64,000 nucleotides of DNA from positions 14,045 through 78,044 of the IMG/VR virus record IMGVR_UViG_3300006153_000012. One strand, written 5' to 3'. Under the pieces are notes generated by a model that saw only the letters and a list, made by a program, of their open reading frames with translations, was not told where the DNA came from and ran no database searches. How positions within the stretch are numbered: position 1 is the stretch's first letter; each line of letters starts with the position of its first letter. A program made the translations under genes and the position numbers. Source of the DNA: a virus. Taxonomy: Duplodnaviria > Caudoviricetes. This document shows, piece after piece, positions 9,041 to 18,999 of the stretch.

Positions 9041-9121
9041 CATACTAATATATGTTATACTTGTGGAGAGTATAACGTCCTCTTGTGGAGAGAGGATATT
9101 GATTCCCTTGTGGAGAGGGAA
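9028..9121 (-). repeat. 3'-splice-site module copy 1 (functional): three CUCCACA-loop hairpins + AGTATG|ATATTCAAAACAA
   Basis: Plus-strand stems GTTATACT/AGTATAAC, TCCTCT/AGAGGA, TTCCCT/AGGGAA each enclose TGTGGAG; 19-mer TTGTTTTGAATATCATACT at 9028-9046. Confidence 0.9.
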
Positions 9122-9145
9122 ATTTATAATAGGAGATGTTTATTT

Positions 9146-9817
9146 ATGAAAAGAAAAATAATAAAAGTAACAATTTTGATTTTAATGTCTATTTCTATAA
9201 CTGGATGCTCCAAGGCTAATTATCAAAAGGATGAATCATATGAAACAGATATTATTGGAACATATGAAATAAATGCCGAAGCTGATTCTGATAATAAAAC
9301 TACTTATTACAAACAATATGTGTTAAATGACGATAATACATATAATTATGAAAGCAATGTATTTGGCACAGATTCAAAGTCAAGCGGTAATTACACTATA
9401 AATAATGAAACAGAAAATATTCTCATAATTGATTTTGATATTATAAATAGTACATCTACCGATGAAGAATCAGTAAATATTAATTCTGCTAAACAATACA
9501 AAAAGGTTTATAAATATAAAAATATGCTTGGTGATATAATAGAAACGAAAGAGTTGCCAACATCCGAAATGTTTAATTACATAATACCGAATAAAACAGG
9601 AGGTGGCATGATATTTACTAAGGATGGTTATTATCATGCGTGTATTGATATTGATAATTGCCAATGTGACTATGCAAAGGACACAAAATATATAAGAAAA
9701 GATAATATTATATATTTCAATATTAAAGGTTCTGGTACTGATAACTATTGGCAAATTGCAGATTATGTAATCGATGATTATTTATTTACTCCAGAACTAT
9801 ATAAAGTGGAAGAGTAG
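9146..9817 (+). CDS. Lipoprotein (cargo)
   Basis: MKRKIIKVTILILMSISITG-C lipobox; AGGAG RBS; start revised from ORF track 9020. Confidence 0.8.
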   Translation: MKRKIIKVTILILMSISITGCSKANYQKDESYETDIIGTYEINAEADSDNKTTYYKQYVLNDDNTYNYESNVFGTDSKSSGNYTINNETENILIIDFDIINSTSTDEESVNINSAKQYKKVYKYKNMLGDIIETKELPTSEMFNYIIPNKTGGGMIFTKDGYYHACIDIDNCQCDYAKDTKYIRKDNIIYFNIKGSGTDNYWQIADYVIDDYLFTPELYKVEE

Positions 9818-10013
9818 TAGTATCATTTCATTCAATCATATAAATCACGTCCTTTCTAAATATTTTTATGAGTAAGATTACTCAATAGATATCACAATAT
9901 CAATTATAATATCTATTCAATGATCTTGGCTTTGATGAAAATATGTTCTGGGTATCAAAAATATATAACTAATGATACAATAAATGTATCAATGTTTAGG
10001 AGGATATCATGCT

Positions 10014-11462
10014 ATGGCACGAAAGAAGAAAATTCTTAGTCCTACATATACAGAGTTAATTGTACCAACATATGATGCATTAAAGCAATTAGGAAATTCA
10101 GCTACTAATGAAGAGATTTATAATAAAATTATTGAAAATTTAAATTTGCCAGATGATGTAATTCACGAACCGCATGGGAAAAATTTAGGCAGAGGTGAAT
10201 TAGAATATCAACTTGCATGGGCAAGAACTTATTTAAAAAATTATGGTGTTATAAAAAGTATTAAAAGAGGTACATGGGAGATAGAACCATCTTTTATTGG
10301 AAATGTCCAATTAAATTATAGAGAAGTGATTGACTATACAGCGAATAAAAAGCAACAATTAGATAATAATGTAGAAAATAATAGTGAAAATTTTCAAAAT
10401 GAGGACGTTGATGATCTAACAGAGGATAACAAATATATTTCTGATGTTGAACAACCCGAAAATGCAAATTTATATATAAAAAGCCTGATTGACTCGTGGG
10501 AAACTAAAGATTTAAAAATACCTTTCTTTCAAAGAAAGTTTGTTTGGACTTTACGTCAAGCAAGTTTGTTTATTGAATCATTATTGTCTAATTTACCAAT
10601 TCCAGCCCTTATGTTTTATAAAGATGCTGATGACTTTCAATATATAATAGATGGACAACAACGAACAAAAAGTATTCTTTATTTTACAGGTGCAATAAAA
10701 CTAGATGAAGTTGATGATGATAATAAAAAGTTTCTAAATTTTAGATTAATCGGATTATCAGATGATAGTCCATATAAAAATAAAACATTTGCTGGACTTG
10801 ATCCTTCTATAAGAAGAAAATTATTAAACCGCACATTGCCAATAACAACAGTCAAGGTAAATGATGATAGTGATTTGCCTAAAATCTTTGAAATTTTTCG
10901 TAGACTTAATACAGGAGGTACTCCTTTAACTAAGCAAGAAATACGAAATTGTATTTGTGCAGGTAATTTTAATGAATTTCTTATTGATTTAAATAAAAAC
11001 AAAGAATGGCAATCATTTATTACCAGCGAGAACGATAGAAAAAGACAACGTGATGTTGAACTAATATTACGATTCTTTGCTTTATATGAAACATACAAAC
11101 AATATAAAAGACCAATGGATGAATTTTTAACTTTGTATTTTGATGCACACAGAGAGATTGGTGATATTGAAAAAGAAGAAAAGACTGCTCTTTTTAATGC
11201 TGTTGTTTCAGCTATATACAATAATTTAGGGAGAAGGCCCTTTCATATAAAAAATGGTTTAAATTCTGGTGTATGCGATTCTGTCATGGTTGCTTTTGCA
11301 AATAATATAAATAATATTCCGCTGGATATAAAAGATCGATTCTTTGCATTGACACATAACGATGAATTTTATAAATATTGTGGCAAAAATATTAACGACA
11401 ATGAATCTGTACAATGTAGGATACAAATTGCAACAGATTATCTTTTTGGTGATTCAGAATAA
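10014..11462 (+). CDS. Mrr_N-like winged helix fused to DUF262 (GmrSD/ParB-like) domain
   Basis: N-term ELEYQLAWARTYLK (Mrr_N-like); C-term PFFQRKFVW, IDGQQR, FRRLNTGGTPL (DUF262 motifs). Confidence 0.75.
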   Translation: MARKKKILSPTYTELIVPTYDALKQLGNSATNEEIYNKIIENLNLPDDVIHEPHGKNLGRGELEYQLAWARTYLKNYGVIKSIKRGTWEIEPSFIGNVQLNYREVIDYTANKKQQLDNNVENNSENFQNEDVDDLTEDNKYISDVEQPENANLYIKSLIDSWETKDLKIPFFQRKFVWTLRQASLFIESLLSNLPIPALMFYKDADDFQYIIDGQQRTKSILYFTGAIKLDEVDDDNKKFLNFRLIGLSDDSPYKNKTFAGLDPSIRRKLLNRTLPITTVKVNDDSDLPKIFEIFRRLNTGGTPLTKQEIRNCICAGNFNEFLIDLNKNKEWQSFITSENDRKRQRDVELILRFFALYETYKQYKRPMDEFLTLYFDAHREIGDIEKEEKTALFNAVVSAIYNNLGRRPFHIKNGLNSGVCDSVMVAFANNINNIPLDIKDRFFALTHNDEFYKYCGKNINDNESVQCRIQIATDYLFGDSE

Positions 11463-11533
11463 ATTATTAAAGGCTCATCTATTCAGATGGGTCTTTTTTT
11501 AATACTCAAAACATTTAGTTAAATCATTTGTTA

Positions 11534-11649
11534 TTGTTTTGAATATCATACTAATTTGTGCTATACTTGTGGAGAGCATAACGTCCTCTTGTGGAGAGTA
11601 GTGTTTTGCGTCATGTGGAGTGACGCTGTATCTAATTGTGGAGATTAGA
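11534..11649 (-). repeat. 3'-splice-site module copy 2: four CUCCACA-loop hairpins + identical 19-mer
   Basis: 19-mer at 11534-11552; TGTGGAG loops at 11568, 11590, 11614, 11637; two stems perfect, one paired only via G.U on minus strand, one weak. Confidence 0.9.
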
Positions 11650-11712
11650 CATTGTGTTTTGTGGATATATTTGGTATAATTTTACTAAAAATATATAATC
11701 AAGGGGATACAT

Positions 11713-17885: not shown

Positions 17886-17913
17886 TTGACAATATATGTC
17901 AGTATGTTACAAT
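17886..17913 (+). promoter_or_regulatory. Sigma-A promoter for small plus-strand transcript
   Basis: TTGACA-16 nt-TACAAT with TG extension. Confidence 0.65.
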
Positions 17914-17962
17914 ATCAATTACAGCACTCAGACTTGATTCTGTAACCACCTCCAAAAAATAA

Positions 17963-18027
17963 CTCGCCTCCACGCGAGATAGGCTTGCTCCACACAAGCC
18001 ACCGACATAGTATGATGTTCAAAACAA
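17963..18027 (+). repeat. Inverted copy of 3'-splice-site module (two CUCCAC hairpins + AGTATG|ATGTTCAAAACAA)
   Basis: CTCGC-CTCCAC-GCGAG, GGCTTG-CTCCACA-CAAGCC, then 18009-18027 matching 18/19 of the motif, in opposite orientation. Confidence 0.9.
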
Positions 18028-18049
18028 CAATGATTATCGGAGGTGGCTC

Positions 18050-18268
18050 ATGGGAAATATAATTAAAAGTGCTGTTGAGTGTGAATTTGCGTATGGGATG
18101 GTATGCGTATTAGCCAGTTTTATATTCTTTTACGCCGCCATTCGATTTGTAGTACCTTACATATATAAGATTGTATGTAAATTATGCAATACATTGGTGA
18201 AGTACAAAGATATTCACACAAAAGCCAATGTTAAGGATGTCTCGTTTGAGACAGAATTACATCGGTAA
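18050..18268 (+). CDS. Small single-TM protein (toxin/effector candidate)
   Basis: 72 aa, hydrophobic segment; GGAGGTGG RBS complementary to upstream CCACCTCC. Confidence 0.65.
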   Translation: MGNIIKSAVECEFAYGMVCVLASFIFFYAAIRFVVPYIYKIVCKLCNTLVKYKDIHTKANVKDVSFETELHR

Positions 18269-18272
18269 TTTT

Positions 18273-18303
18273 GGACTACTGGATTCCACTCTGGTAGTCC
18301 TTT
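18273..18303 (+). terminator. Probable terminator of the 72-aa gene
   Basis: GGACTAC...GTAGTCC stem followed by TTT; loop TTCCAC. Confidence 0.55.
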
Positions 18304-18999
18304 GGCTTGTCTTGTTTATATGATTCTCCGTTTCTTCCCTACGGCTAGGAGAAATCCTTACATTATTCTATTCCTTCTATAATAAGTATAGTTGCTATTA
18401 AGAAATAGAAGAGTAGCATCACTCTTTTGGTTCATGCTTATATTATTAGGCTCCACCCTAATAATATACAATCTATTTCGGTTCTATCTTCTTATCAACT
18501 CCGATAGTGAGAGTTCCAACAAATGTGTAAGACGTAGGAGATAAGATTCCTAACAGCAATTACTAACCGCTACACTCGGCAAAGTCTGGATCACTCCTTG
18601 CAGCATTAGGAATTTCACCTAATGCCACCTGCCCTGATGCTCTCTGAGATTAGCACTCATCTAGTGAGATTTCCATCCTTAAAAGGATTTCTGTACATTC
18701 TGTACGCTGTCATCTGCTCGTTATTGTCAAATATCACATTGTAACTATAGCCGTTTGTGTTGCCACTTAGGAGAGTAGTGATATTTGTATACCAACTTTC
18801 AAGACCATTAATTGCTAAATGGTGTATCCATAATGCAGAGGGATACCATATCTGCTATACTTATAAAAAGTATACGGTGGTTAATTCCACACGAGATTCA
18901 ATTGTGTATTTCACAAAGGATAATATTTAAAACTTATTCTTTGAATAAGAACCAATATTACAACAGGCATATTCGATATGAGGGATTACGTTTTACCCT
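18300..18999 (-). ncRNA. Structured 5' core of the giant intervening element (putative ribozyme) with guide sequence and GUGGAG docking hairpin
   Basis: ORF-poor 700 nt with many stems (e.g. CAAATATCAC/GTGATATTTG, GCATTAGG/CCTAATGC); guide at 18963-18974; 12-bp hairpin 18439-18468 with loop GUGGAG. Confidence 0.65.

Follow-up and report, generated by a model that had tools for sequence, protein, structure and literature searches.

The stretch of viral DNA considered here (the window; 64,000 nt of IMG/VR record IMGVR_UViG_3300006153_000012) belongs to a 78-kb viral contig with an estimated completeness of 48%, and it contains a tape-measure protein (TMP) gene that is interrupted by an insert of 9,959 nt with 11 open reading frames (ORFs) in both orientations. 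YomV/W/X/N domains occur on neighbouring genes in close relatives, and the phage is therefore considered to be an SPβ-like large siphovirus. On one side of the insert, the ORF for the N-terminal part of TMP (20970..18958, 670 aa) contains a PhageMin_Tail domain and runs on past the break; on the other, the ORF for the C-terminal part (9043..6029, minus strand, 1004 aa) matches positions 948–1552 of a 2625-position PHROG TMP profile. Neither the C part nor the 5′ module, when used as a query, found a match in phage databases. A first-pass annotation, made from the sequence alone, had placed an insert of this length inside the TMP gene and counted about ten genes in both orientations, and both statements are borne out; the boundaries (18999 to 9041, minus strand) are exactly those set by the P1 and P10 pairings described below. 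Here, we will argue that the insert is a giant group I intron, belonging to a large family that occupies one conserved TMP site (after …KNxG) in SPβ-like phages and prophages of gut Clostridia, a reading to which we assign a probability of roughly 70%.

One break point shared by many TMP genes

Related loci were gathered from genomes of Lachnospiraceae and other Clostridia and from gut metagenomes (n=130). The conserved end of the N module is present in 112 of them, and in 101 of these 112 the same …KNxG codon is broken, with a stop following 0–38 junk codons later. Ten loci are uninterrupted, a single ORF continuing for 1,100–2,400 residues, and one is ended by the end of its contig. Across the related loci, the gap to the next long ORF on the same strand ranges from about 0.5 to more than 10 kb. 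Over the N part and on into the insert for ~470 nt, the related phage L013 has 92% nucleotide identity with the window, and its island, of 6.5 kb, differs from that of the window. The insert of L131 extends from 4632 to beyond 14698, more than 10 kb without reaching exon 2, and its cargo includes GmrSD_N, HTH-Peptidase_S24 repressor-like, SecB-like and DUF6575 proteins. The TMP N part of L009 is broken twice more, at 10786–11910, where a 303-aa ORF has weak DUF559/DUF2726 (PD-(D/E)xK-like) matches, and at 12368–12838 (~470 nt), where there is no ORF. These extra inserts, which have no Rfam match, are probably further introns.

A group I fold with a predicted remote 3′ splice site

Each insert in the related loci opens with an RNA of ~450–520 nt that has group I architecture (P1–P9, including a P3/P7 pseudoknot). 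Directly 3′ of the break lie hairpins whose stems are entirely different between lineages, and after the break there is a conserved UUUUGAAUAU-GCCGAC, in which GCCGAC is complementary to the last exon bases, GUCGGU. This guide tracks the 5′ exon through the combinations GUCGGU/GCCGAC, GUUGGU/GCCAAC and, in the window and L013, ACAGGU/GCCUGU. At the cleavage position, GUCGGC/ACCGAC represents a switch from U·G to C·A that is found in two separate lineages and core subtypes (L039/L059 and L132/L133), in both of which exon GGU and guide G are replaced by exon GGC and guide A. The intron starts themselves vary (AGGG…, AUGG…, AAAA…).

An unguided RNAalifold analysis of 17 introns (set A4) returns P1, P2a, P2.1, a P6-like helix and a P7-like helix around a strongly covarying P8, with the pair at the break being U·G in 15 introns and C·A in 2. 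When a candidate P3 pseudoknot, P4 and P9–P9.2 are added to these helices to give a full group I structure, 91% of cells pair in 17 class-1 introns, compared with 35–45% for slid partners. Both sides have changed in 61 of the 84 pairs, every helix contributes, and the covariation score is 0.48 versus ~0.1. Bases of the 5′ exon that lie upstream of P1 also pair with a segment that follows P7 directly on its 3′ side (A4 columns 2-3/424-425), and this additional pairing covaries as CG/UG/UA in class 1; window exon position -5 (19005) and intron nt 426 (18574) differ from L013 by a compensatory change between A-U and G-C. Blocks that we take, as a lead only, to resemble the P, Q, R and S elements are visible in the core. 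A covariance model of P4′-P6-P7-P3′-P8-P7′ (R1) gives one match per class-1 locus, with many non-seed members included (E 1e-6 to 1e-11), one match per bacterial host genome, always in TMP, and zero matches in intron-less (fused) loci. A group II intron was rejected as a candidate given the absence of a GUGYG 5′ end, of an Rfam group II match and of a reverse transcriptase gene. An IStron was rejected likewise: in a family profile search, no window cargo ORF has an IS200/IS605-type transposase.

In this family, the 3′ splice site is predicted by a pairing of the exon beyond it with the 5′ extension of the guide. The C part opens with a near-invariant UAGUAUG|AUAUUCARAAC in lineages whose N parts are just 45–55% identical, and the bases that adjoin the guide on its 5′ side have AUAUUCAAAAC as their reverse complement, as in a P10 arrangement. 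For a formal P10 test, the guide was fixed from the 5′ exon, and the 8 nt 5′ of the guide were used to find a complement preceded by G. Complements of 8/8, in frame and at the head of the distal ORF, are found in L051, L053, L058, L077 and L083, and again in L088 and L090, members of another class in which the guide is UUUAGUUG and exon 2 opens with CAACUAAA. Both the window and L013 reach 6/8, the window prediction being exactly 9,959 nt, while a third class (L011/L008) fits by eye only and was not formally scored. Shuffled guides give 0.1–0.5 matches at a looser threshold of 5/8.

The base before exon 2 is G in 14 of 14 loci. In five loci the junction triplet is not ATG: it is ACG in L053 and L077, CTG in L112 and TAG in L088 and L089, and the next ATG is 64–214 codons away in the ACG and TAG loci and 4 codons away in the CTG locus. 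A Shine-Dalgarno (SD) sequence before the C part is absent in every lineage examined. The non-ATG triplets and the lack of an SD sequence therefore argue that the junction G is kept as the terminal guanosine of the intron (ωG) and not as part of a start codon. Furthermore, the downstream exon lacks a start codon in several relatives, so that the distal ORF could not be translated by itself and joining at the RNA level would be required there. Ligation of L088 in silico yields a protein that aligns with the intron-less TMP of L038 in a single high-scoring segment pair (E 4e-115), with no gap at the junction. A leaderless-mRNA start for the C part was also considered and rejected, because of poor spacing and because relatives do not conserve the ATG.

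In the window itself, guide GCCUGU (18968-18963) pairs with exon ACAGGU (19005-19000) to form P1, with U·G at the splice site, and GAAUAU (18974-18969) pairs with AUAUUC of exon 2 (9040-9035) to form P10. The predicted ligated junction, …AACACAGGU|AUAUUCAAAAC…, is in frame (KNTG|IFKT). A P5 extension with a GNRA cap, P8, P7 (drawn as AUCA/UGAU) and P9.2 are recognisable in the core. A second covariance model, built on guide-P2-P2a-P2.1 (R2), has a correctly oriented match at window positions 18979-18895 (38 bits, E 1.4e-3 in 1.46 Mb), a score that resembles the L003/L058 subtype. The window core is a divergent core subtype with one comparator only, L013; two scans of viral contigs for more window-type cores returned zero matches, and three further contig look-ups returned other core subtypes. 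The window and L013 differ by 20 substitutions in 484 nt, eight of which form four base-paired compensatory doubles in an unconstrained fold, where a rough estimate of the chance expectation is about 0.2; two further changes fit the manually drawn P2 and P5. The four compensatory doubles therefore point to structural selection on the RNA in the window lineage.

Comparison of related TMP loci, proposed as a check by the first-pass annotation, thus finds a covarying 5′ core and a 3′ splice-site module that are kept around very different cargo. Its suggestion of a self-splicing shell around a variable island gains support from these relatives, through the covarying core, the P1/P10/ωG arrangement and the startless downstream exons.

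Table 1. Coordinates of the features at the interrupted TMP locus (window positions)
Feature	Position	Strand	Remarks
Intron-like element, 9,959 nt	9041..18999	minus	intron nt 1 = 18999, ωG = 9041; from P1/P10 prediction and junction sequences
TMP exon 1 (N-terminal module, PhageMin_Tail PF10145)	20970..19000	minus	last codon GGU, ends at U19000
TMP exon 2	6065..9040	minus	starts AUAUUCAAAAC, in frame (…KNTG|IFKT…)
Third TMP exon	2335-4731		799 aa
5′ ribozyme-like core	18480..18999	minus	P1a, guide, P2, P2a, P2.1, GNRA-capped P5 extension, P7, P8, P9.2
Internal guide	18963..18974	minus	P1 and P10 strands
10-bp hairpin, hexaloop GUGGAG	18438..18467	minus	candidate docking partner of CUCCAC loops in 3′ module
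Inverted 19-mer box copy and two GUGGAG-loop hairpins	17950..18027	minus	DUF262 leader; complementary to 3′ splice-site region
3′ module	9041..9125	minus	tandem array of three hairpins (stems unrelated, loop CUCCACAA constant) followed by UAGUAUG, whose last base is ωG (9041)
Internal duplicate of 3′ splice-site module	11534..11650	+	ωG-equivalent 11547; 94% identical to genuine module over 66 nt
Internal duplicate of 3′ splice-site module	16259..16310	+	ωG-equivalent 16272
Intrinsic-terminator-like hairpin	12663..12692	minus (sense)	inside intron
Second sense-strand terminator-like hairpin	16736-16717	minus	
72-aa transmembrane (TM) protein gene	18050-18268	+ (antisense to intron)	directly after core
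DUF262/GmrSD_N protein, NsnA-like, 347 aa	17810-16767	minus (sense)	NsnA 9e-32
Cro/C1-type helix-turn-helix (HTH) gene	~16500-16715	+	
Cro/C1-type HTH gene	15957-16250	+	
Three-gene operon, 533/284/213 aa	15789-12709	minus (sense)	without family match
Lipoprotein-like gene 2	11713-12375	+	signal peptide/lipobox read in sequence
Mrr_N + GmrSD_N protein, 492 aa	9984-11462	+	PADLOC NsnA 2e-60, PD-T4-2_A 1e-54
Lipoprotein-like gene 1	9146-9817	+	

Proposed splicing across the island and its alternatives

In a giant group I intron of this kind, the first ~520 nt would act as the ribozyme core, with the guide forming P1 with the final six bases of the exon (U·G at the cleavage position) and the six bases 5′ of the guide pairing to the start of exon 2, 10 kb away (P10); G9041 would be the last intron base. 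The cargo lies between the P9 region and the short 3′ module of tandem hairpins, and consists of a conserved backbone (the antisense 72-aa TM gene and the sense DUF262/NsnA-like gene) followed by variable cassettes. Each cassette has its own leader and putative promoter, and most are antisense to the late operon, so that the prophage could express them. In the lytic phase, a YonO-like RNA polymerase (RNAP) of the phage would probably make the late transcript, which would run through the island. The intron would then be spliced out, with …KNTG joined to IFKT… and one long TMP restored. For the window phage, such splicing is predicted to occur in cis.

The 3′ module is not unique within the island. 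The 19-mer with hairpins at 9028 (the 3′ splice site) has two direct copies, at 11534 and 16259, and an inverted one at 18009, and the 19-mer occurs nowhere else in the 64 kb. GUGGAG loops near the core have their complement in the hairpin loops that precede each acceptor (CUCCACAA), while in other lineages the 3′ hairpins have UUCAAAC loops and a complementary GUUUGAA lies at the end of the core. These loop sequences suggest that the 5′ and 3′ parts may dock through GUGGAG/CUCCAC pairing; a statistic based on the longest complement was discarded, as it is swamped by AT-rich chance matches. We read the internal acceptor copies as footprints of cassette accretion. A further, rather speculative proposal is that the 3′ splice-site module serves as a portable cassette junction, with acquired cassettes bringing their own acceptor and the intron growing by accretion; the choice among three acceptors, or kissing-loop trans-assembly, would then decide between a truncated TMP_N and the full-length TMP, an RNA-level switch that couples the accessory-gene island to tail assembly. 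We regard this proposal as doubtful.

Other roles of the 19-mer were considered as well. On the plus strand, positions 9033-9061 and 11539-11567 can be read as a TG-extended promoter (TTGAAT-N17-TATACT) opposite the 3′ splice-site module. Hairpins with UUGUGGAGA loops come next, ahead of the SD sequence of a lipoprotein gene. The same DNA may thus provide an acceptor site on one strand and a promoter/leader on the other. A plain promoter/leader was rejected as an explanation of the 19-mer and its hairpins, as this promoter sequence fits just two of the four copies. Iterons and integron- or PeSL-like cassette boundaries were also rejected, the complement of the 3′ splice site and P10 being a better explanation.

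Several observations weigh against splicing of the window insert. With filters off, R1 gives no meaningful minus-strand match on the window, and a manual search for P3 and P6 in the window core led to no assignment. The two internal copies of the 3′ splice site seem complete and lie upstream of the genuine site; their use would yield truncated products, namely TMP_N with 15 additional residues (11547) or with 29 junk residues (16272). At least two strong sense-strand terminator-like hairpins lie within the intron. The junction triplet of the window is ATG, which permits independent translation of the C part in this phage. Finally, the Rfam Intron_gpI model (RF00028) has no match, even at E<=10, in the window, six related loci, short inserts or a 511-nt typical core, a result that carries little weight because Rfam also misses the classical-looking second intron in the TMP gene that is described below.

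Some of these observations would fit a fossil intron or split gene that splices inefficiently if at all, in which TMP is made as two polypeptides (an N part with a 13-residue junk tail, RVKRNPSYRICLL, and a C part from the ATG at 9043) and the gap has become a moron/defence hotspot. Besides an ATG exactly at the junction, a divergent central core that R1 misses, the terminators and the two competing 3′ splice sites, this explanation can draw on the low completeness of the contig (just 48%), which could be a decaying prophage. However, the island genes have good SD sequences whereas the ATG has none, and relatives have ACG, CTG or TAG at the junction. All three TMP exons are intact ORFs, P1 has changed on both strands in the window lineage, and the four compensatory substitutions relative to L013 argue for ongoing selection at the RNA level, making a fossil unlikely. 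The terminators would also be avoided if the intron were split and trans-spliced, with exon 1 and core on one transcript and the 3′ module and exon 2 on another. The halves would assemble through P10 and kissing loops, for which GUGGAG loops near the core (18455-18450; 18005-17960) and the complementary CUCCAC loops that precede each 3′ splice site are available, as is the UUCAAAC/GUUUGAA match in other lineages. Yet no promoter was found for the 3′ half-transcript (a sense match, TCCACA-N17-TATGAT, would start downstream of ωG), short family members (0.8-1 kb) look like ordinary cis introns, and a YonO-like polymerase could read through the terminators, which leaves trans-splicing improbable.

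Such a polymerase is encoded in the window: a 910-aa protein (52832-55564, minus strand) has a PF05183 RdRP-family match (9e-9) and is a YonO-like single-chain two-barrel RNAP, with its gene upstream of the structural genes on the same strand. YonO of SPβ is highly processive, transcribes the SPβ late genes as one operon, and is without the flap domain needed for hairpin-dependent termination in multi-subunit RNAPs (PMC5467207). Kinship with this processive, flap-less enzyme therefore makes it plausible that the window polymerase reads through the intron terminators. Removal or movement as DNA is the remaining alternative, in which 9028-18027 would be a non-autonomous transposon or recombination cassette. 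It would account for the 19-bp inverted repeats at 9028 (+) and 18009 (-), found within the island only, for CTTGTGGAGA-type subterminal repeats spaced 22-25 bp, and for cargo and backbone genes that are phylogenetically discordant with TMP. However, no transposase or recombinase family of Pfam is matched in the island, direct repeats were sought at the TMP break and none were found, every base of the 19-mer is accounted for by the complement of P10 and the intron 3′ end, and excision of 9028-18027 would not restore the reading frame. We consider a DNA-level island highly improbable. A giant group I intron spliced in cis thus remains our preferred reading.

Cargo, known systems and a second group I-like intron

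Functions of the cargo are predicted from sequence, and relatives provide context for several of the genes. Homologues of the 72-aa TM gene are found in at least 20 related loci, antisense in all and immediately after the core, and homologues of the 347-aa DUF262 protein in 44 related loci, all sense-oriented and 0.6–3 kb from the 5′ splice site. Their identities are discordant with the TMP phylogeny, and these modules are therefore thought to move laterally. No window cargo ORF matches a homing-endonuclease, transposase or recombinase family in Pfam, in agreement with the first-pass annotation; its statement on endonucleases is nevertheless unsafe, since the DUF262 gene conserved across the 44 loci sits where a homing-endonuclease gene would. 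The 'nitrilase-domain operon' of that annotation has no support from hidden Markov models; there is just an Atlas lead for the 533-aa protein, with CN_hydrolase in 11% of the members of the nearest clusters. Its description of the cargo as defence-like applies in part, to the proteins with NsnA and PD-T4-2_A profile matches, while the rest is not demonstrably defence-like. Searches with the PADLOC Nsn models (NsnA and NsnB) gave only the two NsnA matches in the window cargo and no NsnB, whereas the intron of L009 contains an NsnB match (8e-62). Besides NsnB, the variable cargo of relatives includes PemK-like toxin, DUF4145, Bro-N/ORF6N and Zn-finger proteins and an IS256 transposase.

Group I introns of bacteria and phages are viewed as small elements whose cargo does not go beyond a homing endonuclease or, in the case of IStrons, a transposase, and a non-exhaustive literature search found no report of phage group I introns with multi-gene or defence cargo. 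The T4 nrdD (sunY) intron has its core 5′ of a long ORF-containing segment, and its remote 3′ terminal domain and splice junction, needed for activation of the core, are about 1 kb away. The distance in the window is ten times as long, and the T4 intron carries just one homing endonuclease ORF. The Bacillus cereus-group prophage introns TMP-IVS1-3 are phage-spread group I introns of temperate Firmicutes phages (Tourasse & Kolstø 2008, PMC2504315). Like the window element they are located in TMP, and some are without a complete homing endonuclease gene (PMC2504315); they are of ordinary size with at most an endonuclease ORF, whereas the window combines 10 kb, about 11 genes and a remote 3′ site, the likeness drawn here being one of description. 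Giant gene-carrying group I introns are known solely from hexacoral mitochondria, where the ND5-717 intron of hexacorals and corallimorpharians measures 18–19 kb (PMC6545197). Although many unrelated, functional genes lie within this intron, it is still excised from an essential gene, as proposed here. In contrast, the cargo of the window lies 3′ of the core (after P9), in both orientations, varies between close relatives and resides in a phage.

In the Clostridioides difficile IStron, an IS605-family element occupies the 3′ end of a group I intron (PMC3984707), a layout that resembles the window in having a bacterial group I core at the 5′ end and foreign genes near the 3′ end. IStron cargo is a single insertion sequence (IS) of about 1–2 kb that gives mobility, in contrast to the multi-cassette island of the window, which has no transposase. 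In the relative L115, an IS256/Mutator-family transposase (8025-9278; 4.9e-119) is found inside the TMP intron in the same position, a natural IStron-like state. Moron and defence hotspots of phages and prophages are likewise fixed positions, occupied by variable, laterally exchanged genes for defence, toxin-antitoxin systems and regulators that bring their own promoters; the island of the window differs in lying inside an essential structural gene, where it would be tolerated because it is contained within a splicing element.

Across many phages of gut Clostridia, a single intron family, always at the same site in an essential late gene, ranges from about 0.7 to more than 10 kb, with laterally exchanged cargo that comprises NsnA/NsnB-type defence, PemK-like toxins, lipoproteins, repressor-like HTHs, antirepressor-like proteins and IS. 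If these introns splice as proposed, a ribozyme can unite splice sites 10 kb apart in a bacterial system, the family would represent a new kind of accessory/defence hotspot that is phenotypically silent for the interrupted gene, and the occurrence of 'split' TMP genes, and of orphan TMP fragments in metagenomes, would have an explanation. For a core that escapes Rfam, a covariance model is now available, and the natural variants make selection of a remote 3′ splice site directly testable.

The TMP gene of the window contains a second group I-like intron (4732-6064, minus strand, about 1,333 nt). Here, exon GAUGGU (6070-6065) pairs with guide GCCAUC (6055-6050), and R/S-like GUAGAGACUGUAA … GAAGAUCCAGUCCG are present with a GACUG/CAGUC pairing. 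Its ωG is probably 4732, joining …YLDG|VKVTD…. The ORF within it (5119-5895) encodes a protein with a PemK/MazF-like toxin domain (5.9e-16) and not an endonuclease. In the third TMP exon, ~2 kb at 2500-4500 have a G+C content of 54–60% in a phage of ~30% G+C and encode a Gly/Ala/Ser-rich segment, which suggests foreign origin or a strong amino-acid bias. Elsewhere in the window, three phage tRNA genes are located on the minus strand (43115-43201, 44352-44423 and 51021-51091), and in the related phage L008 a skipping-rope RNA (RF02924, 39 bits) is found at 7765-7831, upstream of the tail genes.

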